Translations under genes and position numbers: made by a program
In this document: positions 3,100 to 28,825 of the stretch, one piece after another
Numbering within the stretch: the first letter of the stretch is position 1
Layout of the letters: each line of letters opens with the position of its first letter
Source: a virus
Reading direction: 5' to 3' (one strand)
Length of the DNA stretch: 64,000 nt
Virus record (IMG/VR): IMGVR_UViG_3300008085_000023
Span: 77,906-141,905 of that record
The notes under the pieces: model-generated
The model's input: only the letters and a program-made list of their open reading frames with translations
The model's database searches: none
Told to the model about the DNA's origin: nothing

Positions 3100-3107
3100 T
3101 ATTTATA
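3100..3107 (-). promoter_or_regulatory. gp55-type late promoter TATAAATA
   Basis: Exact match, 5 nt before ATG 3094. Confidence 0.8.
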
Positions 3108-3111
3108 CGGC

Positions 3112-6100
3112 TTAGTTATAACGTGAAAGCCATGTACCCTTTTCTAATGAAGCTTCGGTTAACGTAATTGCTGTAGAAAGATTATCAACTCCCACGGTAC
3201 TTCGTGTAGTACTTTGATTATACTGCAATTGGCCAGGTGTTGAATATTTATGAGTGTTCCACTGGCCATGAACAAAATCGTTATAGTTCAAAAATAAGCT
3301 ACCGCCTCTAATCTCCACAGAGCGCACTGCTAATGACGATAGGGGATTACTAATGAAATTCTTTTCAGCCATCGAGAAGGAAGCTTGAAGACTTCTGCGA
3401 CCATCTCCTATCGCAATTGGTCCGTATAGATAAAAGCTTGAACGTTCGTCAATAACAATATTCTGATACCAACCATGATATAGATTACTTCCTGCACCGA
3501 TAAAATGCAAAACAGATAGAGGAACAAACGCAGTGTTTTCATATAGTTCAAATGTCGTTAAGCCTTTATCTGTGTTATTTCCGTTATACTGCGAAATAGC
3601 GCGCAGATGACTTCTACCCTTGCAACATATTGCGATAGCTTGTCCAACATTAGTGCTTTCAGTATTGTCTAATAGAGGTCCTTCAAATACAAATGACAAT
3701 GCTTCAGGAACATTAGGCCATGTTAAATTTACAACATGCTTACTTGACTGGAATATATCAACCGTGCTACGATCATCAACGAAGATGCCAAACTTATTCC
3801 ATTTGCCCGATAGCTTCATTGGACATACAAAATCTAGCTTGCTATTATTCGTTACTGATACAGCTGTTGAACCATTGCCTGTAGCATGCAGCTCAATACT
3901 GTTAAGCTCAATATTGCATGCGTCAGGACCAGAAGAATACGTAATACCAGACGATCCAGAAAAACTAAATGTCGTTAGAATATTAGAATAGTTGTATGCG
4001 AGCAATGGACTTTCAGCACTCTCTAGTTCGCGTTCGCCGCGAAGAATAATCTTACCGGCGCCTGGTAGAGCAATGCGATTCAGATCTAAACCTGTACTAA
4101 AGTTATAATATCCTGCTGGGAAGTTTAGTGTTAGGACACCCCCAGTCGCAACGTAATCGTAATTAGACTGAATAGTAGAATATACTTCATTGTTACGAAC
4201 AGTATCAGATACTACAAACTGTTGTGTTATTTCTTCATTATCAGTAAATGCTCTTGCTATGATTTTCAATTCATCGGGAGATGCAATACCATACGTAACT
4301 GAATACCCAAGATTAAACATACTATTTGCATTAGTAACCCTCCAACCCATTTCACTCATCACGTCGCGATACGCAGCCATAGATGAATATGTTCGATTAA
4401 CTTTACTATTCAATAGAGAAAAATCAACGCCTTCAGTCGTTGCAACTTTAAAGCCAGAGATCGTTAACTCAGTAGCGCCAGCTGCTGACATATCGTCGAA
4501 CGCAGTTGCAAGATCAGAGAAATCGCATGCCAGTGACGCTGCGCCAGAAGTGGTTCGGCCAGTTTGTCTTTGCACGATTGGCTTGTATTCCTTAATCGTG
4601 TTGAATTCGTAATATGAAAACGCCGGCTGATAACGACTCCTGTTGGCATACCCATCTAGATATAATTCTTCATATGTCGTCCAGGTCGTCTGGATTTTCA
4701 TTGGCCACTCAGTCCATGGAGTCTTGCCAAAGTAAATCACTTCGCCATCAACCGCTTTAACAGCGGCAATCGTCATAACATAATCATCTGATACGTTAAT
4801 GGTGTACTTGTTTCCAAGATTCACAGTCCTATCAGCAAGATTTTGAATTGCCCATTTAACTTGATCAATACGTCCAATTGAATACTCAATATTCCCATTA
4901 GCATCTAACTTAGGCGCGCGGGGACCATTGTCAAGTGGAGGGAATGCTGTTTCGTTTAGCAACGAAGCCTCGCGATAAAAGCGTCCATCGTTCATTGCTA
5001 TACCACCATTATGGTATCCAAAATAGTCCCAACTATCATTCTCATTGATTTGATTAAAGAAGTATCCAAACACTTCGTTGAATGCATTAGAATCAACTGT
5101 TGAATGAATTTCAAAATCAGAAAACCATAATTGAGGTTGCTCCCATGCTTCGCGCGAAGAGTTAATGCTGCTTGGCAACCACGACGATGGGTACCAATAT
5201 TTATCTTCGCCTACGGGAATCATTCGGTTGAATAGTTGCTTAAGATCAAACGTTAACGAAGCTCTGACTGCACCGGCGTCACCAATAACACTTTCTGCGA
5301 GAGCTGGGTTAAGTGATTCAAGTTTAACTTCAGTTTCAGCTGATGTTGCGGGATCAATATATTTTGCTATAGGAATTGTATTATTTGGCTCGAACGTTAC
5401 TTCGGTCGATTTAACTATAGCAGGAATAACACCAACAACCTGTGACAGAACTTCTTCGCTATTGAGTGTTTGCGACTTAATAAGCAACGTATTATCTTGA
5501 AAGGTTATTAGATAATCTGGACCGTAATCTTTTTCAGTGATAGTTGTTTTTAAATCATCAAGGGTAAAGAATATGCCATTGTTTAAATCAGCATTCAATT
5601 GTGTTAGTGCACTAGGTGAACCAACATTACTTACAAATTTAAATCCCTCTAATGTAACGCCCCAAAAAGCATTAGCTTCACCTACTGGATGAGCTGCAAG
5701 GAACACATTATTAAGTGCAGAAAAATCGCATAATATCGATGAACCTTCTTCGATAAGAACACCTGGTTCTGATTCGTATACTGGAGGCGTTGTTGTGTAC
5801 TCTTCCCACGATTGCTCGCCTTCAACTTCGATTTTACGACGTACATCATACGTAGCGTCCACTGAAATTAATTCAGTATTTGTTGGATCATTAGCAACAA
5901 TACTAAATGTCATTGGATCGCGTGTTACTAATGGATCTACATCGCCATTCTCGTAATCATGATTCCAGCCGTTTTCATTAATCGTAATTGTGTAATTTGG
6001 AATGAGCTCATTTGCAGCGCGAATCTTCGAAATAATATAACGTCTAAATGATCCAGGTGTGCTATAATCGCCAGGAGGTACTACTAATAGATCATTTAAC

Positions 6101-10365: not shown

Positions 10366-10794
10366 TTATTTTTCTATGGACATATGTTTAACGTGAGTTG
10401 CGTTAATTCTGCAGTTAATTATGCCGTTATAATATTCATCCTGCTTCAGCAAAACGCCGCGCGTAAATTGCTCTTCGCTTTCGCGATACGATAGTTCGCC
10501 TTTAGTGTAGCAGAGATGAAGGATCTCTCGATGAAAGATATCAAGGCCATGCTCTTCAAGCAGCAGCTTAATATTTTCGCTTGATCCACAGTATTTTTTC
10601 CAATCGGACTCTGGGTATGAAACGCGTTTACGCTTATTTCCTTTTAGTGGTGGTCGCGAAACTTTGCGAAAGAACCGCTTTTGTCCGATGTACTTTTTGT
10701 TATTCTGAAGATTAGTGACGCAATATACAAACCCTACAGCATCGCCAATCATCTCACTAGTAAACTCTTTGCCATCATATATCCATTCATTCAT
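10366..10794 (-). CDS. GIY-YIG family nuclease
   Basis: GFVYCVTN...KYIGQK, ESDWKKYCGSS; TATAAATA at 10800-10807. Confidence 0.8.
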   Translation of the reverse strand: MNEWIYDGKEFTSEMIGDAVGFVYCVTNLQNNKKYIGQKRFFRKVSRPPLKGNKRKRVSYPESDWKKYCGSSENIKLLLEEHGLDIFHREILHLCYTKGELSYRESEEQFTRGVLLKQDEYYNGIINCRINATHVKHMSIEK

Positions 10795-11140: not shown

Positions 11141-11752
11141 TTATTCATCATCGTCGTCATTAGTCTTCTCCCTAACAAGGAATGAATCCAAGAAGGGTTT
11201 CCACTGAGGCTTCATATCGATATGAGCAGTCATTTGATTCATATGCAAAAACCACGAAGGCTTCTTAGGTTCAAACAACAATCTCATTCCTGCTTCTTCA
11301 GGTGTACGGTCAGCCTTGAAATGATTGCAGGGCTTGCATGCAGAAATTGTATTCTGCCATGACTTTGGTCCACCGAATGATTTCGGATTGATGTGATCAA
11401 CCGTCAATTCCTTTTTGGTGAATGTTTGGCCGCAGTAACCACAACGATATCCATCGCGCACAAATAAGCTTTCACGCGAAAACTTTACTTGGTTCTTTGG
11501 AAGACGATCGAACTGGGTTAGAATTACAACCTGTGGTACAGCTATACGATTATTAACCGTATGGATGATGTGCTGAGTAGGGCTCTGCTCAATCTTAAGA
11601 GAAGCGTCTAGCCAACTTTTGAAGTTATATTGAATATAGTTTTGATCCACTACGTGGCATTTGTCCTGCATCAGCAGCGACATAGTACGCTTCCAATTGA
11701 TAACATGTATAGGCATGAAAACCTTGTTTAAAACTAGTGCGTCTCTTTTCAT
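11141..11752 (-). CDS. HNH endonuclease (McrA-like), start revised to MKRDALVLN
   Basis: RDGYRCGYCG, TVDHINP, N...ACKPCN; the longer start in the track overlaps tRNA-Cys. Confidence 0.88.
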   Translation of the reverse strand: MKRDALVLNKVFMPIHVINWKRTMSLLMQDKCHVVDQNYIQYNFKSWLDASLKIEQSPTQHIIHTVNNRIAVPQVVILTQFDRLPKNQVKFSRESLFVRDGYRCGYCGQTFTKKELTVDHINPKSFGGPKSWQNTISACKPCNHFKADRTPEEAGMRLLFEPKKPSWFLHMNQMTAHIDMKPQWKPFLDSFLVREKTNDDDDE

Positions 11753-11768
11753 AATATTACTTTCAATT

Positions 11769-11844
11769 TGGAGGATGCAGTGAGAATCCAACTCACACAA
11801 TCACGGTTTGCAGCCGTGCGCCTTTAGCATTCAGCCATACACCC
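11769..11844 (-). tRNA. tRNA-Cys(GCA)
   Basis: Cloverleaf, CACGG-CTGCAAA-CCGTG, CCA; T-loop TTGGATT. Confidence 0.85.
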
Positions 11845-11862
11845 ATTAAACTACTTTGATCT

Positions 11863-11892
11863 ATATTAACATATTTAGGTGTAATTGTACAC
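11863..11892 (-). promoter_or_regulatory. Early-type promoter upstream of tRNA-Cys/HNH
   Basis: GTGTACA-N17-TAATAT. Confidence 0.7.
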
Positions 11893-12057
11893 CATTAGTT
11901 TTGCTGCCCAAGGTGAAAGCTCTCACCTTAGGACTTTAAATAGGTCAACCTTTAAGTCGCATTATTGGAATTGCTTCTTCACATATTACATATATCGGAG
12001 ACTCATACGTCCAATTTGACGTCTCCTATTATGCGTATACCGATTGAATGTGTAAAT

Positions 12058-12139
12058 TGGTGCGGATGGTGAGAATCGAACTCACAAATAATTCACCAAG
12101 GTTTGAGCTTGGCCGCTTTGCCAGATTGCGTACATCCGC
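12058..12139 (-). tRNA. tRNA-Leu(CAA)
   Basis: CCAAG-CTCAAAC-CTTGG, variable arm, CCA. Confidence 0.9.
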
Positions 12140-12148
12140 ATTTTGAAA

Positions 12149-12222
12149 TGGTTGCTTCACCGGGATTCGCACCCAGACAAAGAGCTTCAAAGACTCCTGT
12201 GCTGCTATTACACTATGAAGCA
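12149..12222 (-). tRNA. tRNA-Gln(TTG)
   Basis: Loop CTTTGAA, CCA. Confidence 0.85.
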
Positions 12223-12228
12223 ATAAAA

Positions 12229-12310
12229 TGGTACCAGTGGAGGGAATCGAACCCACAAACATATCACCTGCTTCTAAGGCAGGCCGCTTTGCCAGATTGC
12301 GTACACTGGT
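12229..12310 (-). tRNA. tRNA-Leu(TAG)
   Basis: CCTGC-CTTAGAA-GCAGG, CCA. Confidence 0.9.
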
Positions 12311-12474
12311 ATTAAAATGTGTTTAGTAGTGAACTTTACAACGCGAGAATTTATTGCTTCGCTCCACAATCGCTATATCAAGCAATTACTTCTGTTAGCA
12401 TCAACCATCCTCGTAGATGTGATATCATCTATCTTCAACGTATTTCACAGTGTGATACCATGACTAAACATAAA

Positions 12475-12558
12475 TGGTGTGGATAGGGAGACTTGAACTC
12501 CCACGCCTTTCAGCACAACGTTCTCGACGTTGCATGTCTGCCATTTCATCATATCCAC
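12475..12558 (-). tRNA. tRNA-Leu(GAG)
   Basis: CAACG-TCGAGAA-CGTTG (C33), CCA. Confidence 0.85.
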
Positions 12559-12681
12559 ATAAAAGGTTTCGGCCCTTTGGAGATTTGAGCATTATCTATA
12601 TTCTTGCTACTTATGCGCTGGGAATATTGCTTAGACAAGAGGCTTTCCTCATTGGCCTTGACACTCGTCAGTGCCCATTAT

Positions 12682-12763
12682 TGGTGCGGATGGCGAGACT
12701 CGAACTCGCAAATAAATCACCAAGGTTTAAGCTTGGCCGCTTTGCCAGATTGCGTACATCCGC
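12682..12763 (-). tRNA. tRNA-Leu(TAA)
   Basis: CCAAG-CTTAAAC-CTTGG; near-identical to the Leu(CAA) gene. Confidence 0.9.
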
Positions 12764-12769
12764 ATGAAT

Positions 12770-12800
12770 TGACACTAAAAGGATTCGAACCTTCATCTCT
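12770..12800 (-). pseudogene. T-arm remnant of a tRNA-like RNA
   Basis: GAGATGAAGGTTCGAATCCTT identical to the T-arm region of the RNA at 28831-28989; no 5' half. Confidence 0.55.
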
Positions 12801-12814
12801 CTTACTTTAATCGA

Positions 12815-12890
12815 TGGTGCGATAGGCGGGGTACGATCCCGCAACCTCCACGTTGGCAACGTGGTATTCTCCCAGTTGAATTACTATCGC
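12815..12890 (-). tRNA. tRNA-Gly(GCC)
   Basis: CCACG-TTGCCAA-CGTGG, CCA. Confidence 0.88.
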
Positions 12891-12896
12891 ATAAAC

Positions 12897-12970
12897 TGGA
12901 GCCGACAGACAGACTTGAACTGACATCATCTGATTACGAAACAGATATTCTTCCTTTGAACTATATCGGC
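12897..12970 (-). tRNA. tRNA-Thr(CGT)
   Basis: Loop TTCGTAA, CCA. Confidence 0.82.
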
Positions 12971-12975
12971 GAAAT

Positions 12976-13051
12976 TGGTGCACCGGCAGGGACTCGAACC
13001 CTGATCTCACGCATTAAAAGTGCGTTGCTAAGCCAATTTAGCTACCGATGC
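12976..13051 (-). tRNA. tRNA-Lys(TTT)
   Basis: ACGCA-CTTTTAA-TGCGT, CCA. Confidence 0.9.
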
Positions 13052-13060
13052 ATTTTAAAT

Positions 13061-13136
13061 TGGTACCTCTGTTCGGTAACGATCCGAATTCTCCGGGGTA
13101 AAGGCCCGGTCATCATCCATATAATGTTTCAGAGGC
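13061..13136 (-). tRNA. Atypical tRNA-Lys(TTT)
   Basis: CCGGG-CCTTTAC-CCCGG (C33); paralog of Lys(CTT) at 17465; T-loop ATCGTTA. Confidence 0.7.
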
Positions 13137-13145
13137 ATTGTAAAG

Positions 13146-13221
13146 TGGAGCCGACACTGAGACTTAAACTCAGTTCCCATCCGTACCAAGGATGAATTCT
13201 AATCAGTTGAACTATGTCGGC
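13146..13221 (-). tRNA. tRNA-Thr(GGT)
   Basis: CATCC-TTGGTAC-GGATG, CCA. Confidence 0.85.
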
Positions 13222-13232
13222 ATTAAAAAAAA

Positions 13233-13308
13233 TGGTTGGCCTGAGTGGATTTGAACCACTAACCTGCTGAGTCAGAGTCAGCCGCACCGCCAATTGTGCT
13301 ACAGGCCA
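13233..13308 (-). tRNA. tRNA-Gln(CTG)
   Basis: GCTGA-CTCTGAC-TCAGC, CCA. Confidence 0.9.
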
Positions 13309-13314
13309 ATAAGA

Positions 13315-13389
13315 TGGTCCCTAAGGAGAATTTCGAAATCTCGACATTTCGGATATGAACCGAACGCTCTGCCTCTGAGCTACCTAGGG
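13315..13389 (-). tRNA. tRNA-Met(CAT), elongator (Ile2 not excluded)
   Basis: TTCGG-TTCATAT-CCGAA, CCA. Confidence 0.8.
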
Positions 13390-13394
13390 ATGAA

Positions 13395-13485
13395 TGGCGG
13401 AAGTAAGAGGTATCGAACCCCAACCGCTTTTACACGGTCCAACTGTTTAGCAAACAGCGCCCATCACCATCAGGGATTTACTTCC
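13395..13485 (-). tRNA. tRNA-Ser(GCT)
   Basis: Loop TTGCTAA, long variable arm, G73-CCA. Confidence 0.88.
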
Positions 13486-13491
13486 AAAAAT

Positions 13492-13566
13492 TGGCTCGCG
13501 AGGCTGGATTCGAACCAGCGACAACTTGCTTAACAGGCAAACGCTCTACCACTGAACTACACGCGA
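13492..13566 (-). tRNA. tRNA-Asn(GTT)
   Basis: Loop CTGTTAA, CCA. Confidence 0.9.
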
Positions 13567-13573
13567 ATTAAAT

Positions 13574-13649
13574 TGGAGCCGCCACACAGACTCGAACTGT
13601 GATCACTGGAGTACAAAACCAGGGCTCTAAGCCTTTGAGCTATAGCGGC
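13574..13649 (-). tRNA. tRNA-Thr(TGT)
   Basis: Loop TTTGTAC, CCA. Confidence 0.85.
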
Positions 13650-13656
13650 AATAAAT

Positions 13657-13732
13657 TGGTACTCCTACTAGGACTCGAACCTAGACTAAAAGCTTAGAAG
13701 GCTCTTGTGCTATTCCCTTACACCATAAGAGT
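13657..13732 (-). tRNA. tRNA-Arg(TCT)
   Basis: Loop CTTCTAA, CCA. Confidence 0.9.
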
Positions 13733-13740
13733 ATTAAAAT

Positions 13741-13816
13741 TGGTGGCACAGGTGGGGAATGATCCCACGACCGGCAGGGTTTCAATCTGCTACTCTACCA
13801 ACTGAGTTACTGTACC
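13741..13816 (-). tRNA. tRNA-Phe(GAA)
   Basis: Loop TTGAAAC, CCA. Confidence 0.85.
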
Positions 13817-13823
13817 ATGAAAT

Positions 13824-13907
13824 TGGTGGCGAAGGTAGGAATTGCACTTACAAGTCCGAAGAGGGTGATTTACAATCACTTGAGCCCACTACCTGCTCAA
13901 CTCCGCC
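13824..13907 (-). tRNA. tRNA-Tyr(GTA)
   Basis: Loop TTGTAAA, variable arm, CCA. Confidence 0.8.
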
Positions 13908-13916
13908 GTGTTAAAT

Positions 13917-14005
13917 TGGTGGGAAATGGTGGTAACGCACCACTTGTCTACTTCCGTTCTGTTTTTCGACGTTGGTTTTACAGACCAATGAACGGTACAT
14001 CTCCC
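13917..14005 (-). tRNA. Atypical D-armless tRNA-Tyr(GTA)-like gene
   Basis: Acceptor GGGAGAT/ATTTCCC-ACCA, TTGGT-CTGTAAA-ACCAA, T-arm present; D-arm replaced by a 10-nt strand. Confidence 0.65.
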
Positions 14006-14071
14006 AAATAAAAATATGGGCCCTTATTACGGGTTTTCGACCGCGCGAGGGGCTAACGCCATGCTATTTGT

Positions 14072-14238
14072 TTTTGAAAGAGGTTCACCATAAACGCTCA
14101 ACAATTACCTAGGATGTTAAGCTTTCTCTGCTGACGTATCTTGCGATTGGATAGCTAATCCGGTGCGGCGAGAGTCGATTTAAGGACGTTTGCCAGACAA
14201 AACTAGAAACTGACCACAGACTGGTGAATCTTTCAAAA
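14072..14238 (-). ncRNA. Rod-like structured RNA (6S-like candidate)
   Basis: Terminal stem TTTTGAAAGA-TTCACCA / TGGTGAA-CC-TCTTTCAAAA plus inner pairings; ~167 nt. Confidence 0.45.
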
Positions 14239-14315
14239 TGGTAGGACAGTTCAGAATCGAACTGAAATTATTTCTCGGTGTAAACGAGGTGCCATAACCA
14301 TTAGGCGACTGTCCC
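14239..14315 (-). tRNA. tRNA-Val(TAC)
   Basis: Loop TTTACAC, CCA. Confidence 0.85.
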
Positions 14316-14995
14316 TACATAAATTTTCCACGAAGACCATCTCGTTTGCGGCCTTTCGTGTGATGTTGTGTATTTTCGTATCTCTTAATCAATGCTTCTT
14401 TTACATTTTTTACATGCTCAAGTGTTTTTGGTGTGCCCTTAAGCGCGTTTTTTACAATTGCTCTTCGACAATTCTCTGAACAAGACATACGATCCAAGCT
14501 AATTGATTTACCACAGTTTTTACAAAGGCCAGAACCCCTTTTATTCCAAGCGCTTCTGCCTTTCACCCACCCTTTCGGAATAATGGTATCATTAGAAATT
14601 CGGCTATTCTCTTTAAGCTCGATATTAGAAATCCACATTGTTCCAAACGAGCCATTAAATTTACCAACGCGCTTCTTACCATTAGCGCGCCATGTATCTA
14701 AGCACATTTTTCGAACCGCTTCATACATGCGGGAATTGCGAATATGAGGAATACCACGTTCTTCACATCTCATTGCCATCATATGACAAGCATGGGCCAT
14801 CTGTTTATTTTTATATATTCTAAATAAAAGTAGATGAGCAATCCAATGTTCACGACCTGTTAAAATTACTATATTAGTTAAAGAATAATCACCACCCATT
14901 GATTTGGGTAATATGTGATGCCGCTCGGTATAGCCTATGGCCGGGTGCTGAAGACGTGTATTGATTAGTGAATCGTAAATATATTTGTAGTTCAT
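14315..14995 (-). mobile_element. Free-standing HNH homing endonuclease (Mob-like), start revised to MNYKYIY
   Basis: YTERHHILPKSMGG...NIVILTGREHWIAHLLL; TATAAATA at 15001-15008, 5 nt before ATG. Confidence 0.85.
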
Positions 14996-15020
14996 AAGGT
15001 TATTTATATATTTGCGAACT

Positions 15021-15079
15021 TTCAAACCCCCACAATCTGCGTGTAAAACAGAGGTTCTAGACCTTTGAACTAACAGGGC
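15021..15079 (-). pseudogene. 3'-truncated tRNA-Val(TAC)
   Basis: 5' acceptor strand, D-arm, TCTGT-TTTACAC-GCAGA present; breaks off in the T-loop at the HNH promoter. Confidence 0.7.
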
Positions 15080-15087
15080 ATTAAAAT

Positions 15088-15178
15088 TGGCGGATGGAGT
15101 GAGACTCGAACTCACACGTGTTTTACCACTAACTGTTTTCAAGACAGCAGCCCGTAGACCGACTTGGCTTATCCATCC
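15088..15178 (-). tRNA. tRNA-Ser(TGA)
   Basis: Loop CTTGAAA, variable arm, CCA. Confidence 0.88.
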
Positions 15179-15188
15179 ATAAAAAATT

Positions 15189-15258
15189 GTTCGGTGTCCT
15201 ACCGTTAGACGACCACCCCGCAGTGGAGTAAGCAGGACTCGAACCTGCATTTCCGAAC
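15189..15258 (-). ncRNA. Circularly permuted tRNA-like RNA (YrlA-like topology)
   Basis: Order is T-arm, acceptor 3' strand, ACTGC linker, acceptor 5' strand, D-arm; closed by GTTCGG/CCGAAC. Confidence 0.7.
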
Positions 15259-15264
15259 GTTCAT

Positions 15265-15363
15265 TGGTCAGGGATGTGGGATTCGAACCCACGAGGCATA
15301 CACGCTTAGTATACCTATCCGGTTCCAAGCCGGACGAAGATAACCAGACTCTTCCAATCCCTG
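15265..15363 (-). tRNA. tRNA-Pro(TGG) with long variable arm
   Basis: TCCGG-CTTGGAA-CCGGA; 8-bp variable stem; CCA. Confidence 0.82.
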
Positions 15364-15368
15364 TAAAT

Positions 15369-15443
15369 TGGTGCCCTCTGAGAGAATCAAACTCCCATCA
15401 TTCGGTTCGTAGCCGAGTATTCTATTCGTTGAAATAAGAGGGC
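15369..15443 (-). tRNA. tRNA-Arg(ACG)
   Basis: Loop CTACGAA, CCA. Confidence 0.85.
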
Positions 15444-15454
15444 ATCTTATAAAT

Positions 15455-15540
15455 TGGCACCTAGGGTAGGAGTCGAACCTACAGTTGACTTTCGTCGACG
15501 GGTTAACAGCCCGCTGCAATACCATTCTGCTCACCTAGGT
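15455..15540 (-). tRNA. tRNA-Asn(GTT) with variable arm
   Basis: GCGGG-CTGTTAA-CCCGT; GAC-GAAA-GTC variable hairpin; G73-CCA. Confidence 0.8.
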
Positions 15541-15548
15541 ATTAAAAT

Positions 15549-15622
15549 TGGCGCCCCATAGGAGTATCGATCTCCTTCTGCTACCGTGACAGGGTAGTGT
15601 GCTTCCATTACACCAATGGGGC
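15549..15622 (-). tRNA. tRNA-Asp(GTC)
   Basis: CTACC-CTGTCAC-GGTAG, CCA. Confidence 0.88.
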
Positions 15623-15630
15623 TTGTAAAT

Positions 15631-15705
15631 TGGTGCGGCAACTGAGTAACGCTCTCAGAACTAATGGGTGGAAGCCATTCGTGTATCTATTAACACCTCT
15701 GCCGC
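15631..15705 (-). tRNA. tRNA-Gly(TCC)
   Basis: AATGG-CTTCCAC-CCATT, CCA; atypical T-loop. Confidence 0.8.
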
Positions 15706-15846
15706 TCGAAAAATGAGAGAGGATCCTTACCATCACTATTCTAAATTTGTGATGATCATTTAATTTCCGGATAGGAGAAGTCTTTAGAAACCTCTACGTC
15801 CTTGCCCTACTCTGAAACCCCTCGTAACAGAATCAACAGGCAATAT

Positions 15847-15921
15847 TGGGTTGACCAACGGAAATCGAATCCGTATCCCCGCATTCACAGTGCAGTGCTT
15901 TTGCCGTTAAGCTATGGCCAA
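15847..15921 (-). tRNA. tRNA-His(GTG)
   Basis: Loop CTGTGAA, C73-CCA. Confidence 0.87.
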
Positions 15922-15932
15922 ATTGTAAAAAT

Positions 15933-16009
15933 TGGTGCCCCCATCGGGCTTCGAACCCGAATCGCCGGATTGAGAGTCCAGTATTCTATACCGTTTAAAC
16001 TATGGGGAC
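15933..16009 (-). tRNA. tRNA-Glu(CTC)
   Basis: Loop CTCTCAA, CCA. Confidence 0.85.
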
Positions 16010-16016
16010 GATAAAT

Positions 16017-16091
16017 TGGTGCCTCCTGTAAAACTCGAACTTACAACGTCAGGTTCGTAGCCTGATGTGATATCCGTTTCACCAAAGAAGC
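16017..16091 (-). tRNA. tRNA-Arg(ACG), second copy
   Basis: TCAGG-CTACGAA-CCTGA, CCA. Confidence 0.85.
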
Positions 16092-16100
16092 AATACCGTA

Positions 16101-16769
16101 TTAAAACTTTATCTTACGGCCGATAAGCCAGCCCTCAGGCACCAGCATATCTTTTGGAACTCGTTTTGAGACCTTTTCATATGGGTTGTAAATCCACTTG
16201 GTCCCAAATTGGGAATTCCGACTGCCCAATTGACTAATTTTATTAGCCGACCCGATTCTTTTCTTAGCATCTTCTGAATGAGTTTTGCCAAGAAATGCTC
16301 GAGTATTCTTACGCTTTAAGAAATCTGGATCATCTTCAATTTTTAGTTTCAAACCCGTAACCCCTTGAATTGCGAGAATACTTCGCCAATTAGGACCATA
16401 CTTCGCCTTTAATTTTTCATCTGCAGCGATCCGGCCTTTACGGGCAACTTCAACGTTGGAAAATCCATTGAGATTGTTTTTATTGATTAAATCCCAACCT
16501 CCAGAACCACCAACCTTTAGGTTATATGTGTTTTCTTCAGTTAAGAAATCTTCATTAACGATCTCAGCTTCTTTAGCATACATGTCTTCAGGGTTGTCGT
16601 AAACGAACAAAATCTCTTTGGTAAAGTTTTCAATACCATTCTTCTTTTGAGCTCGTTTTAGATACTTACCTGAACCCATATAATTGTCATTCGGATCAAT
16701 GGTCTTATGGCTTCCAATATAGAACTTGCCATTGATCCGATTCGTTATCTTGTATATCGTATAGAACAT
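16101..16769 (-). mobile_element. Free-standing GIY-YIG (Seg-like) homing endonuclease
   Basis: YTIYKITN...FYIGSH...YMGSG, YNL..GG, NUMOD3-like GKTHSEDAKKRI; TATAAATA at 16788-16795. Confidence 0.9.
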
Positions 16770-16825
16770 AGAATTACTCCATGTTCTTATTTATACAAGT
16801 TCGAGTCTTGACTAGACTCTGAAAG

Positions 16826-16898
16826 TAGCGGAGGTTGGAATCGAACCAACGTCACTGGGGTTATGAGCCGCAGCGGGGAACCAGCACCCCACTCTGCA
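16826..16898 (-). tRNA. tRNA-Met(CAT), initiator-like; CCA not encoded
   Basis: Loop CTCATAA, 1:72 mismatch, GC-rich anticodon stem. Confidence 0.7.
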
Positions 16899-16901
16899 AA
16901 T

Positions 16902-16976
16902 TGGTACCCCTGAGCGGTTTCGATCCGCCTCCCTTTGGGTGAAAACCAAAGATCCTAGCCAGTAGACGACAGGGGC
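16902..16976 (-). tRNA. tRNA-Glu(TTC)
   Basis: TTTGG-TTTTCAC-CCAAA, CCA. Confidence 0.87.
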
Positions 16977-16988
16977 ATTAAAAATTGT

Positions 16989-17063
16989 TGGTGGACGATG
17001 CCGAACTCGAATCGGCATCCTCTGAGTGCAGGTCAGAGATTCTAGCCTTTGAACTAATCGCCC
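16989..17063 (-). tRNA. tRNA-Ala(TGC)
   Basis: TCTGA-CCTGCAC-TCAGA (C33), G3:U70, CCA. Confidence 0.85.
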
Positions 17064-17213
17064 TTAAAATGAAAATATAATGATCTATGTTTTAGCTGTT
17101 GATCACGGTCTACAACCATATCAACAAATTTCGAAAATGATAATGTTGATAAGCAAAATTCAGCTTTAAGCTGAGAAATATACTTTGCGAACTTTGAACA
17201 ACTTCTATGCAAT

Positions 17214-17291
17214 TGGTACGAGGAGAGGGCCTTGAACCCCCATATCAACTGGTTATAAGCCAGCCGGCTTCACCGATTTGCCTATCCTCGC
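17214..17291 (-). tRNA. tRNA-Ile(TAT)
   Basis: GCTGG-CTTATAA-CCAGT, CCA. Confidence 0.85.
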
Positions 17292-17298
17292 ATTAAAA

Positions 17299-17373
17299 TG
17301 GTCCGCGATGGTGGTAACGCACCACCTTTCCCTGTGTATCAGACAGGAGTAATAACTTTTATACTAATCGCGG
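17299..17373 (-). tRNA. tRNA-Ile(GAT)
   Basis: CCTGT-CTGATAC-ACAGG, CCA. Confidence 0.83.
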
Positions 17374-17379
17374 ATAAAT

Positions 17380-17454
17380 TGGCAGGTCCACCCAGATTCG
17401 AACTGAGACAATGAGTTTTGGAGACTCTCGTGCTACGCATTACACTATGAACCT
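17380..17454 (-). tRNA. tRNA-Trp(CCA)
   Basis: Loop CTCCAAA, G73-CCA. Confidence 0.88.
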
Positions 17455-17464
17455 AACGTAAAAA

Positions 17465-17540
17465 TGGTACCCCCGTTCGGTAACGATCCGAATTCTTCCG
17501 GTTAAGAGCCGGAACATCATCCATATAATGTTTCGGGGGC
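17465..17540 (-). tRNA. tRNA-Lys(CTT), first gene of the array
   Basis: TCCGG-CTCTTAA-CCGGA, CCA. Confidence 0.83.
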
Positions 17541-17654
17541 AACTTGAAAAAAGGACACTCGCATTTTTGATAACAAGGTTGTAGAGTGTCAGCTCTCTAT
17601 CCTTGGATTTTTTCCAATTTTCAAAACTATATTCAATTGTCAATGATCGATAAC

Positions 17655-17686
17655 AAAAAAGCCTCTTGGCTTTTCAGCTAAGAGGC
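17655..17686 (-). terminator. Intrinsic terminator (attenuator) upstream of the tRNA array
   Basis: GCCTCTTAGC-TGAAAA-GCCAAGAGGC-TTTTTT. Confidence 0.88.
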
Positions 17687-17719
17687 AAACATAAACGAGC
17701 TATGTATGCGTCTTAACCG
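17675..17719 (-). promoter_or_regulatory. Antiterminator hairpin overlapping the leader stop codon and the terminator 5' arm
   Basis: CGGTTAAGA-C-GCA-T-ACATA [GCTCGTT] TATGT-T-TGC-C-TCTTAGCTG: 17 bp, two 1x1 mismatches. Confidence 0.78.
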
Positions 17720-17814
17720 ACACCCTCATCAGGTGTAATTTCGGCATTATGTTTCCATTGTGTGGAACATGTCCCTGCCAGGGGATTACTAAATCTATAT
17801 AACTTCTTTATCAT
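17713..17814 (-). CDS. 33-aa leader peptide containing all 20 amino acids (MIKKLYRFSNPLAGTCSTQWKHNAEITPDEGVG)
   Basis: Manual translation; lies between three promoters and the terminator/antiterminator pair. Confidence 0.75.
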   Translation of the reverse strand: MIKKLYRFSNPLAGTCSTQWKHNAEITPDEGVG

Positions 17815-17822
17815 TCTACTCT

Positions 17823-17830
17823 TATTTATA
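17823..17830 (-). promoter_or_regulatory. Late promoter upstream of the leader ORF
   Basis: TATAAATA, 8 nt before ATG 17814. Confidence 0.75.
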
Positions 17831-17885
17831 CAACTTACTGCCTTCAATCTCAAATTATTTTCAATTATTTTCAAACTCTGGTAAT

Positions 17886-18001
17886 ACTATACCACAATGT
17901 CCGTGGATTGTACACCGTTATTTTTCAATAACCGCTGCTTTCAGGTTGCTATCCCTTTAGCATCTAGATCTAGTATAACACAATGGCCATGGCATGTACA
18001 C
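17886..18001 (-). promoter_or_regulatory. Two tandem early-type promoters (17886-17915 and 17972-18001) driving the leader/tRNA array
   Basis: GTGTACA-N17-TATAGT and GTGTACA-N17-TATACT, both with TG extension and A-rich upstream. Confidence 0.8.
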
Positions 18002-18091: not shown

Positions 18092-19486
18092 CTATATATT
18101 AAGATCGCACACGCCGCCTGCACATGCCTGAGAGCCCATTTCATCTGCCTTTATTAAAAAGCTCTCTTCCACGAGGTTCACCCAATCTACAGTTTTATAT
18201 GTGCGTGATAGGTCACACCATAGTTTCCAGTTAGAAACATCCTTGAGGCAATACGTCATTTGACGAAGATCGCCATTGAAATAGCGATCAGCAAACTGCC
18301 GGCCCCGGCGGATCCAATCCATTTTTGCCGTGCGGGAATGTATAAAATCGTTTGATGGACAATCATAAGCGTCTATTGGTTCAAATTCTGTGTTTTCGCC
18401 AACACCTAATAATGTATCACACGCACGATATAGATTCTTGAAAGCCGCTAGGCCATCAACAATCATTCCAGATGCAAACACTGAAGCATCTCCATACATT
18501 TTGACTAGTTCTAAAGGTGAGTATACAGCACAGAATGGCGCTTGGTCGTAGTCCTTATCACCTGCGAACGACAATAGGGAAATACCAGCAAAGCTTTTAC
18601 GGTTACGATAAATGTAGCTTTCGACAGCATCCCATTCATTATCCTGAAGTGTGATAGTGTTAGAGACGTTATTCCGTACAAAGTCTCTAACGCATAATTC
18701 CTTTGTTGTGCCTTCTTCGACCCAATTCATTTGAGTCAGTTTAACATGCTCAAGCAAATCAATAGCAGACATCTTATTCTTAACCTTAGCGCCATCTGGC
18801 ACCTCGCACAAGAAGGTGATGACTTCATCGGTATCGTTAGCGCTCCATACACTATCTTCAACAGCATCAATATTTACGGATTTGAAATGTTGTGCAGGAA
18901 ACTCTAGTTTATTAGCTTGAACTCTACGCATATATCGTTTGGCGTGATGAGGATGAATTCCAGAAGCAGTTCCCAATATGCAGCTTGCGCTTCCGCTCGG
19001 TTTGACGCATGTGCAGCGTGCGGCGGGATTGATGCCTATAAGATTTGCTGTAATCCGATTCCACTTCTTGACGACTCTCGCGCCTTTTCGCTGAATACGT
19101 TCATCAAACAATACTTCAGGATTATCCATCATACCTGTAATAGAAACACCAAGCAGAGCTTCGCGGCGGGTGATCTTTTCTGTTATTTCACCAAGATATG
19201 GGAAGTCTGTATATCCTGCCTGAAGTGTACCCAGAATTGCGGCGGCCTTGCACGCATCATAAAACTTTTCTTCATCAGAAGCCTTCTTCCCATTAATCTC
19301 TGTAAGGTTGCAAAACTGAAAGCCTGATTCTTCAGATCCATCATCATTATACCAAATGGGCCACATCCCGATTTCAACGCAGTTGTGTACAAGCATTCCA
19401 TTTGCAAAAAAGTTATGATTACTTTCTACAGTAATATCATATACATCTTCATTGCGTTCAATTGAGAGTCTTTTAACTTTGGACAC
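18092..19486 (-). CDS. nrdJ: Class II ribonucleotide reductase, C-terminal part, with N-terminal split-intein IntC (35 aa)
   Basis: VYDITVESNHNFFANGMLVHN|CVEIG; FCNLTEIN, CVKPSGSAS, C-terminal ACAGGVCD. Confidence 0.9.
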   Translation of the reverse strand: MSKVKRLSIERNEDVYDITVESNHNFFANGMLVHNCVEIGMWPIWYNDDGSEESGFQFCNLTEINGKKASDEEKFYDACKAAAILGTLQAGYTDFPYLGEITEKITRREALLGVSITGMMDNPEVLFDERIQRKGARVVKKWNRITANLIGINPAARCTCVKPSGSASCILGTASGIHPHHAKRYMRRVQANKLEFPAQHFKSVNIDAVEDSVWSANDTDEVITFLCEVPDGAKVKNKMSAIDLLEHVKLTQMNWVEEGTTKELCVRDFVRNNVSNTITLQDNEWDAVESYIYRNRKSFAGISLLSFAGDKDYDQAPFCAVYSPLELVKMYGDASVFASGMIVDGLAAFKNLYRACDTLLGVGENTEFEPIDAYDCPSNDFIHSRTAKMDWIRRGRQFADRYFNGDLRQMTYCLKDVSNWKLWCDLSRTYKTVDWVNLVEESFLIKADEMGSQACAGGVCDLNI

Positions 19487-20237
19487 GTCTTACCTCTTTC
19501 CATTTCTGTAATTCTTTTTCATAAGTTGATCTTTCTTCAATAAATTTACAAATTGACTTTCCTTTAATAATGCAAACTTCAACATCAGTAATTTCACTGA
19601 GGATAATGGCTTTATCTGAGTTATTATCCCAATATCCTTTAATCTCAACAATTTTTAACAAATTCCAGTTATCGTCATATAGAAAAAAATCCGGACGATA
19701 GATTCGGCCATCTGGCATTACGTAATGCGTAACTTCAATTTTCCAATTTTGTTTAGTACGGTTGAGCCACTTCGCAAAGATGAATTCGTATGTTGATCTT
19801 AACCAAACATCATTATTTGTTGTGCTATTATAAAAATACCCCTGAACACCTCGGGCGTTGTACTTTTTAATTTTACGTCTAATATCTGGATTAAACCATC
19901 CACTATGCGTTTTCCATTCACTAATTGCTTTATCAGATCTTCTTTTTCGTAGAGCGTCAGTTACAACGGACTGTCCTTTGCGAAGTGGAATTTGATATAG
20001 ATTCATCACTTGGCGCATTAACATATATGACGTGTTCAATTCCTTAGCAATGACCTTTAGACCTTCTTTGTCTATTAGGTATCTTTTATTTAGCAAATCA
20101 TACAATTCTTGACCTGTGGGTGAAAGCATTCTTTCATATCTGAAGTTTTGGCGCTCGTTCTGAGTAAAATTACACCAAAAGGGATGGCACGAATCATATT
20201 TTCCATATAATCTATAAAATAACATTTGTGAATCCAT
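19473..20237 (-). mobile_element. Free-standing PD-(D/E)xK endonuclease between the split-intein halves
   Basis: RSTYE...YRPDFFL...IVEIKGYW; TATAAATA at 20243-20250, 5 nt before ATG. Confidence 0.78.
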
Positions 20238-20252
20238 GTTATTATTTATAAA

Positions 20253-21560
20253 TCATAGAATTTCAACATCATCGTCTTCTGTCAAATCTTTTGCTTCAAC
20301 ATATCCTCTATTAGTTGTCCATATCTTATGATCGGGCGTGCATTTAAGAAACTGACCATTGCATAATTCAATTTTAACTATTTCCGCGTCAGCACGAGTC
20401 ATCGCAGCATTAGTAATCGTTTTCCATTCACGAACGTTAGTCTCAATATTCATACTTAATGCTTCTAGCGTAACCTTCTTCGATATAAACAAACTAACCA
20501 AAACGTCCATTCGCACAAGCCGTTCTTCGCCATTCACTTTTACGTTGACCAATGTATCAGCAGTCACGCATGGGTTTACACTTACATTTTCATGCTCGGC
20601 CCATACAAACCCCGGCTCGCCGAATTCGCGGGTCTGTTTGAATAGATCTGCAAATTGCTGACGACCCACATCATTTCGAATAAGAAGAGCGCTGTTATTA
20701 CTTCGAGCACGCTGGGGATTAGTCAGGAACCAATCTCCAGTTTTTGCCATGGCCATTTCTGTATCTTCTGGCGAAAACAAATTGATACAAGCGGATCTAC
20801 GGATACCACCTGACAGAACCGAGTCAGAGATGTGCATCAGAATATCATAGCAGTCAATTGGAGGTAACTGGACGGTTCCAGAATCACTTGATTCTATTCG
20901 CCTATTAATCAACCCCTGTATACGCTCCAACGCCCTCTCGAGGCCCTCAGGACCAGGTGCAATTCCACCCCAACTGATCAAAGAACCTCTTGGACGAATC
21001 TTGGAAAAATCAAATTCAATGTGCCAACCGAAGTATTCTGGAAATGGCTGATCTTCAACAAAGAAGGAAGACATAAGAACACCAACAGCATCGGCCCAAC
21101 CTTCGACACTATCTTCAACGACATACTTTTTAGCACCAACGGTTTCGCGATATACTCGTTTTTGAACCTTTGGCAACTTGTTGACATGACAATACTGCGT
21201 CGAAAATCCTACACCAACTCCACACAGCAAAAGGTATAGGGCTTCTTGGAATGCCCGAGGGCGGTCAACATGACCAGATGAGCAATTATAGATTCGTTCG
21301 TTTTTCTTAAGGATAGCTTCTCCTCCAAATTGCAATGCTCGCTGTGAACCAAGGATTGTCTTTGAAGCCAATGCCCGTTCTGCAATAGAAATGAGCTCGC
21401 GAAGTTCTTCCGACTGTGCAAGCTCATTTACATATTTTCTACGGTGCATATCAAAAACCCGATCCACTGTTTCGCGGAATGTTTCACGACGTTTCTTCTC
21501 TGGAAGATGACGCGCATAGCGTGAATAAAAAATGTAATCCTGTAACGCTCGAATGCTCAT
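20253..21560 (-). CDS. nrdJ: Class II ribonucleotide reductase, N-terminal part, with C-terminal split-intein IntN (105 aa, 20256-20570)
   Basis: RRETFRETVDR, YNCS, GGIRRSA, GEPG, NP|CVTADT...CTPDHKIWT..RGYVEAKDL. Confidence 0.9.
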   Translation of the reverse strand: MSIRALQDYIFYSRYARHLPEKKRRETFRETVDRVFDMHRRKYVNELAQSEELRELISIAERALASKTILGSQRALQFGGEAILKKNERIYNCSSGHVDRPRAFQEALYLLLCGVGVGFSTQYCHVNKLPKVQKRVYRETVGAKKYVVEDSVEGWADAVGVLMSSFFVEDQPFPEYFGWHIEFDFSKIRPRGSLISWGGIAPGPEGLERALERIQGLINRRIESSDSGTVQLPPIDCYDILMHISDSVLSGGIRRSACINLFSPEDTEMAMAKTGDWFLTNPQRARSNNSALLIRNDVGRQQFADLFKQTREFGEPGFVWAEHENVSVNPCVTADTLVNVKVNGEERLVRMDVLVSLFISKKVTLEALSMNIETNVREWKTITNAAMTRADAEIVKIELCNGQFLKCTPDHKIWTTNRGYVEAKDLTEDDDVEIL

Positions 21561-28751: not shown

Positions 28752-28825
28752 TGGTTGGCCTAACAGGATTTGAACCTGTCCCAAGAGTGTCAAAGACTCT
28801 TGTGCTGCCACTACACTATAGGCCA
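28752..28825 (-). tRNA. tRNA-Gln(TTG)
   Basis: AGAGT-CTTTGAC-ACTCT, CCA. Confidence 0.9.

Follow-up and report, generated by a model that had tools for sequence, protein, structure and literature searches.

The multivalent leader-peptide attenuators of the enterobacterial amino-acid operons ilvGMEDA, ilvBN and thr, with trp and his as prototypes, are mechanistically the closest described systems to the element studied here, a segment (positions 17830-17655) that stands before a transfer RNA (tRNA) array in the phage record IMGVR_UViG_3300008085_000023. The likeness lies in a short promoter-proximal open reading frame (ORF), three successive overlapping hairpins (called P, A and T in the phage) and an intrinsic terminator before the first structural gene. 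In the attenuators the antiterminator is blocked by a ribosome that has reached the stop codon and can form when the ribosome stalls further upstream, and the same is predicted for the phage segment. The response of the ilvGMEDA and thr leaders is not limited to a single amino acid. Two other systems resemble the phage locus in part. T-box riboswitches are alike in the outline of the proposed function, a leader switch that governs termination according to the state of the tRNA pool, but they bind uncharged tRNA directly through a specifier codon, need no ribosome, and control synthetase and amino-acid genes. The Escherichia coli rrn leader (P1-P2-boxB-boxA-boxC) is alike in having tandem strong promoters before a long untranslated operon of stable RNAs.

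The window, by which we mean the whole stretch of DNA that was analysed, makes up the right-hand 64 kb of an IMG/VR phage record of 141.9 kb that has terminal repeats. Nearly all genes are on the minus strand, the coding strand, and all features described below lie on it. Near-identical DNA is present in metagenomes from an aquifer, a cold spring and a hot spring, and the nearest proteins of cultured phages are less than 50% identical. The tRNA array (11769-17540) holds 34 tRNAs identified by ARAGORN, which brings the window to 36 and the whole genome to 39. The original prediction for this locus had 37 tRNA genes for all 20 amino acids; the complete coverage was borne out and the count was not.

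We tentatively regard the segment 17830-17655, in the leader of the tRNA operon, as an attenuator of transcription that depends on ribosomes, a possibility that we rate somewhat short of even. Its layout is that of an attenuator, since the stop codon of the sole leader ORF falls in the 5' arm of a hairpin that masks a strong terminator inside the transcription unit. If real, the element would differ from the known attenuators in several ways. Its targets would be tRNA genes, where those of the known systems are biosynthetic enzymes; runs of regulatory codons are absent; its default without translation would be read-through, with no superattenuation; and it combines a weak Shine-Dalgarno (SD) sequence and a probably leaderless, or near-leaderless, initiation with a lack of conservation in relatives.

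Leader ORF, overlapping hairpins and ribosome masking

The candidate leader peptide is encoded at 17713-17814, with a TAA stop at 17715-17713, in the only minus-strand ORF of at least 20 codons in the leader. It had been described as a frame of 33 codons that contains every amino acid and 28 distinct codons, and a recount agrees. Each amino acid occurs one to three times. This mini-ORF alone has all 20 amino acids among the 727 ATG-initiated ORFs of 20-40 codons in the whole genome. The chance that 33 random codons include all 20 was first estimated at about 2% or less; improbable it is, and simulation makes it rarer still, with P = 0.0014 (0.14%) under the 3-mer frequencies of the genome and 0.005 (0.5%) under uniform usage. 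The property is nevertheless not unheard of, because about 10 independent stop-free windows of 33 residues with all 20 amino acids occur by chance when the genome is translated in six frames. No Pfam family matches the mini-ORF, and no hydrophobic segment was found in the 33-residue peptide.

The mini-ORF ends within hairpin A (17675-17719), a candidate antiterminator of 18 bp and -17.9 kcal/mol whose 5' arm includes the final sense codon together with the stop. The 3' arm of this hairpin doubles as the 5' arm of the intrinsic terminator T (17655-17686), which consists of an interrupted GC-rich hairpin of 10 bp (17686-17661, -14.4 kcal/mol) and six U residues at 17660-17655. Because 12 nucleotides (nt) are common to both, A and T are mutually exclusive. 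The original prediction had drawn the same geometry and the same exclusion with a hairpin of 17 bp, and only this length needed correction. Hairpin P (17716-17745) overlaps A from the other side, within codons 24-33 of the mini-ORF. It has the core ACACCU/GGGUGU at 17736-17720 and an extended form of -10.5 kcal/mol that reaches into A and occupies its bottom 4 nt, which is the competing hairpin already foreseen as taking the bottom 4 bp of the antiterminator. P is possibly a pause hairpin or an analogue of the "1:2" hairpin of known attenuators.

A is more stable than T and is transcribed before the 3' arm of T. In the minimum free energy (MFE) fold of the whole leader, A is present and T has no pairs. 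On the coding strand of the 142-kb genome a terminator search finds about five that are clear and canonical; when each is folded in its native context, the other four keep all their pairs and T alone keeps none.

The effect of a ribosome was modelled by masking, around the first A-site base, a footprint that reached 15 nt in the 5' direction and 12 or 14 nt in the 3' direction, and then refolding the late transcript, a procedure that captures thermodynamic geometry only. With the A site at codons 2-26 or 28, hairpin A retains 18 of 18 pairs (17/18 at codon 28 with the 14-nt reach) and T forms none of its 10. Codon 27 depends on the reach: 12 nt gives 0/18 pairs for A and 10/10 for T, and 14 nt gives 18/18 for A and none for T. 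At codon 29 the shorter reach leaves A with 16/18 and T with none, and the longer one leaves 9/18 and 8/10. Codons 30-31 give 9/18 for A and 8/10 for T, and at codons 32, 33 and the stop A is lost (0/18) and T is complete (10/10). The masked folds therefore go from A to T at codons 29-32, and the switch behaves as had been proposed, with a ribosome at the stop blocking the antiterminator and an upstream stall freeing it. A terminating ribosome would not cover T itself, since the stop codon is 26 nt from the stem of T.

Promoters, late transcripts and the place of T in the tRNA unit

Two tandem promoters lie upstream of the segment. P1 (17972-18011) has the form GAAAATAATGG-TGTACA-17 nt-TATACT with a TG-extended -10 and is also detected in a consensus scan; P2 (17886-17926) is a tandem copy 86 nt downstream with the -10 element TATAGT. 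They had been predicted as two early-type promoters, and both prove to be members of a phage promoter family and not generic sigma-70 look-alikes. The family, with the consensus AAAATAAyGGTGTACA-N13-TGgTATAAT(-AGATC), has about 28 copies in the genome, all on the minus strand and nearly all before genes. A GGTGTACA box stands in for the normal -35 in this family, which is reminiscent of activator-dependent middle promoters. In addition, the leader of P2 carries at 17857-17886 two tandem copies of the upstream element of the family (TGAAAATAAT) without a core promoter, which may be remnants of a further promoter copy.

A late promoter motif of the T4 type, TATAAATA, is found at 17823-17830, and the ATG of the mini-ORF follows 8 nt downstream; a late promoter before the ORF had been part of the prediction. 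The motif is strongly biased to the minus strand, with 32 copies in the genome against one on the plus strand (6-7 expected), and an ORF of at least 50 codons follows 28 of the 32. Nine long ORFs (up to 1831 codons) begin exactly 5 nt past TATAAATA, and others begin at 0, 6, 8 (521 codons) or 9 nt; instances of leaderless spacing in the window are at 3107, 8620, 10807, 15008, 20250, 44866 and 50159. The length of the leader after the motif can be judged from the position of the start site at T4 late promoters. If the start site is placed in the same way here, the spacing suggests that many late messenger RNAs (mRNAs) of this phage are leaderless or near-leaderless.

The array is interrupted by homing endonuclease genes driven by late promoters, with TATAAATA at 16795-16788 and 15008-15001. 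Four genes of this type lie within or beside it (16101-16769, 14315-14995, 11141-11800 and 10366-10794), as judged from PHROG homing-endonuclease or HNH matches; the Pfam HNH matches are weak for 14315-14995, and TATAAATA stands at leaderless distance before three of the four.

Directly after the U-tract of T lies a boxA-like leader element (TCATTGACAATTGAATATAG, 17627-17646). It is near-identical to the TCTTTGATAATTGAATAG of locus L299, which stands 15 nt after a promoter; L299 comes from the sample that also yielded the closest relative, and the array of that relative may begin there. In the phage studied here (G000) the element is a 2-mismatch form, 240 nt after P2 and immediately 3' of T. 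Across relatives, TCTTTAAmAATT is found 15-44 nt after the -10 element in 13 tRNA-array leaders, and 13 of its 44 matches lie within 80 nt downstream of a family promoter, for which 0.9% would be expected. Its positions include L237:114-125 and 3244-3255, L233:707, L133:1744 and L299:14295, with further copies in L149, L223, L242, L254 and L283. The element of the relatives, TCTTTAACAATT, contains what we take to be the core of the E. coli rrn boxA, GCUCUUUAACAA, and rrn-style antitermination of phage tRNA operons is thereby suggested. In contrast to the E. coli rrn leader, the boxA-like element here lies after the terminator, and it is a candidate NusB/S10 site; from a position after T it cannot explain read-through of T. 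Between this element and the first tRNA there is another leader hairpin (17574-17605, -11.1 kcal/mol), which was detected on the plus strand.

After P2 (17914), the next copies of the promoter family are at 11891 and 10362, and none lies within the stretch 17540-12058 of the array. Since there is no family promoter between T and 11891 and the boxA-like RNA element lies 3' of T, the transcripts of the first tRNAs must pass T, which, judged by this arrangement of signals, is inside the tRNA transcription unit. A promoter of the array's own would alter this picture. T would then end an upstream unit, and a weak promoter of the sigma-70 type after it (TTGACA at 17643-17638 and GAAAAT or AAAATT 15-16 nt later) would drive the tRNA genes. 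There is indeed a perfect TTGACA 10 nt past the U-tract of T, and a relative (G007) has a terminator, 9 nt, a family promoter box and then its array. However, the candidate -10 elements are poor, badly spaced and under the threshold of the consensus scan, and the promoter would be unlike the highly conserved family of this phage. Moreover, the TTGACA belongs to the boxA-like element, which acts at the RNA level in 13 related leaders and would not be transcribed if used as a -35. We consider such a promoter very improbable.

Weighing a possible ribosome-dependent attenuator

If the segment is an attenuator, transcripts from P1, P2 or the late promoter would pass T before reaching the boxA-like element and the tRNAs. 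With no ribosome near the end of the mini-ORF, A would form first and hold the 5' arm of T, and RNA polymerase would read through; the folds predict read-through as the default state without translation. A ribosome stalled with its A site at codons 2 to about 28 would have the same outcome. If translation proceeded smoothly to codons 30-33 or the stop, the ribosome would cover the 5' arm of A, T would fold and transcription would end. Smooth translation would in this way lower tRNA synthesis, and slow decoding or poor ribosome loading would raise it. The mechanism presumes translation of the mini-ORF, for which near-leaderless late transcripts are the most plausible templates, a temporal coupling of transcription and translation, and selection for high amino-acid diversity as a means of sensing many different decoding problems.

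A series of findings speaks against this mechanism, and the first of them would equally suit an untranslated, constitutive partial terminator, in which A and T fix a level of read-through and thereby insulate against, or set the dosage of, transcription arriving from the nrdJ region and P1/P2, nothing is sensed and the composition of the ORF is coincidental. The MFE preference for A over the best fold containing T is only 2.7 kcal/mol, a gap that would give a mixed outcome without a ribosome. When the upstream 70 nt are dinucleotide-shuffled with T held fixed, T is lost from the MFE fold in 10.9% of cases, so that about 11% of shuffled upstream sequences likewise mask it, and a competitor preference at least as large as the native 2.7 kcal/mol appears in 1.8%, a figure that is on the side of the attenuator; overall, the significance of the competition between A and T is modest. 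The phage tRNAs read 27 of the 33 mini-ORF codons, compared with 84% in average genes, so there is no enrichment, and the choice of codons is unrelated to the tRNA set of the phage. The SD pairing of the mini-ORF is also weak (-2.4 kcal/mol, no better than at 42% of random positions). The original prediction had itself called the ribosome-binding site weak, and this holds with less force than it seemed to have: since the ATG follows TATAAATA by 8 nt and leaderless spacing is frequent among the late genes of this phage, a weak SD is not a strong argument against translation on late transcripts. That leaderless-type distance between late promoter and ATG is in turn difficult to square with a constitutive partial terminator, as are all 20 amino acids in a single leader ORF (P = 0.0014). 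Furthermore, with A transcribed earlier and more stable, T would rarely form unless A were removed, and a strong terminator would then be pointless. Fixed, unsensed read-through therefore appears quite unlikely to us.

Other adverse points concern what a ribosome-dependent attenuator could sense and control. The statistic on all 20 amino acids was chosen post hoc, within a scan that covered a very large number of windows. The mini-ORF has its only Asp at codon 29 and its only Val at codon 32, both in the non-sensing tail, and Met serves solely as the initiator; the sensing zone accordingly covers 17 amino acids and not 20. The expectation that a stall at almost any codon except the last four or so would be sensed thus agrees with the masked folds for 17 amino acids and fails for Asp, Val and Met. 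At least 17 kinds of amino acid in 26 random codons have P = 0.036 and are reached by 2.7% of windows in real proteins. The late promoters at 16795 and 15008, which drive homing endonuclease genes, bypass the switch for most of the array, as had been anticipated for internal late promoters at 16788 and 15001.

The comparison with relatives adds to these points. A search of IMG/VR for the family promoter returned more than 98 matching stretches (loci L131-L301), many of them with tRNA arrays, whose leaders are short and uniform: a promoter, then the boxA-like element, then the first tRNA. The original prediction had named the tRNA-array leaders of related phages as the place to look for short ORFs with all 20 amino acids and for covarying stems; no support was found there, as none of 13 promoter-proximal array leaders from phages with the same promoter family has a closed mini-ORF with a terminator. 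Pattern searches of IMG/VR gave 0 matches for the back-translated peptide and 0 for the pattern of T, and no homologue of a 53-residue in-frame extension of the mini-ORF was found in the protein collection. Contigs from the cold-spring, hot-spring and aquifer runs have zero substitutions in the ORF, A and T, the sole difference being a 1-nt deletion at 17858, so that these near-identical copies provide no evidence of covariation. No RNA run was found among the sequencing runs that contain the sequence.

Further searches gave the same result. A terminator scan of the arrays of G006 and G007 revealed no attenuator-like cassette, and none was found before the tRNA arrays of the distant relatives G003 and G004, which follow ordinary genes. 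The leader has no blastn match in cultured phages, and in blastn and tblastn searches of the collected loci of relatives only promoter-like stretches matched. Within this genome, no cassette like 17830-17655 was found upstream of the isolated tRNAs at 28825 and 31186, and no Rfam family, T-box included, matches the leader. By comparison with related leaders, the module of mini-ORF, A and T is a lineage-specific addition, apparently placed between the promoters and the conserved leader element.

A lineage-specific addition is also what a moron-like mini-gene or small RNA would be. In that case the late promoter, the ORF and T would form an independent late unit that had inserted downstream of the tRNA promoters and ahead of the boxA-like element, and its product would be a very small protein or a terminated RNA some 160 nt long; A would merely weaken T so that tRNA transcription continues, and the amino-acid diversity would be chance. 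Promoter, small ORF and terminator are the classic moron layout, and 28 of the 32 TATAAATA motifs drive ordinary ORFs. The cassette is missing from all the related arrays examined, in which the boxA-like element directly follows the promoter, and the roughly 10 all-20 windows that occur by chance would accommodate the composition. Yet a peptide of 33 residues without hydrophobic segment, family or homologue is unlikely as a stand-alone protein. With strong tandem promoters on one side and 34 tRNA genes on the other, a terminator whose bypass was not controlled would carry a cost, and the choice between A and T hinges on precisely the arm in which the stop codon is placed. We hold an independent late unit to be rather unlikely on balance, and keep the ribosome-dependent attenuator as our tentative reading.

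The surroundings of the leader can be followed in relatives as well. The class II ribonucleotide reductase gene upstream (nrdJ, 18092-21560) is in two ORFs, 20253-21560 and 18092-19486, and between them lies an ORF of 254 codons that begins 5 nt after a TATAAATA. The best nrdJ relative, L023 (69% identity), has the same promoter family directly before its exonuclease gene, in the order reductase, a gene for 137 amino acids, a GIY-YIG gene, family promoter and exonuclease (L023:7942-8950; compare 18092-9429 in the window). The 5.8-kb tRNA array and its leader are absent at this locus and apparently lie elsewhere in that phage (L299, L238), which suggests that tRNA arrays move as blocks between promoter copies. 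No tRNA array was found beside the gene in the 33 IMG/VR loci scanned among relatives of the nrdJ C-extein (IMG/VR and metagenome contigs), nor is one adjacent in the relatives of the exonuclease. In another relative (L237:12266-12380, G007), an ORF with AAGGAGG and an ATG after tandem promoters reads stop-free into tRNA-Lys, and 5' cleavage of the tRNA would leave a non-stop mRNA. An ArfA-like identity was considered for this ORF and set aside, as no Pfam family matches it.

Decoding speed and the supply of phage tRNAs

The widest interpretation of the element is that of a general sensor of translation capacity, or of the tRNA pool. A near-leaderless test ORF of 33 codons would sample 17-20 amino acids and switch on an operon of 34 tRNA genes when any of them is decoded slowly, be it through starvation, a mismatch of codon demand or host anticodon nucleases. 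We think this extension unlikely as it stands, and its link to anti-defence against anticodon nucleases is pure inference. In the literature we found no paper on control of tRNA genes by a leader peptide in phages or bacteria, nor on feedback from decoding speed for any tRNA operon.

The timing of phage tRNA gene expression is poorly understood, and so is the question whether these genes serve codon supply or the repair of damage by defence systems. If the reading is true, a complete set of phage tRNA genes would be preceded by a device for feedback control of tRNA supply by decoding speed, and the cassette would belong to a broader, as yet unpublished class of leader-peptide attenuators by which phage tRNA arrays are gated. 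It would then also serve as a compact reporter for tRNA depletion. The widespread promoter family, the boxA-like leaders of tRNA arrays and the late genes at leaderless distance after TATAAATA are useful for the annotation of a large group of uncultivated phages.

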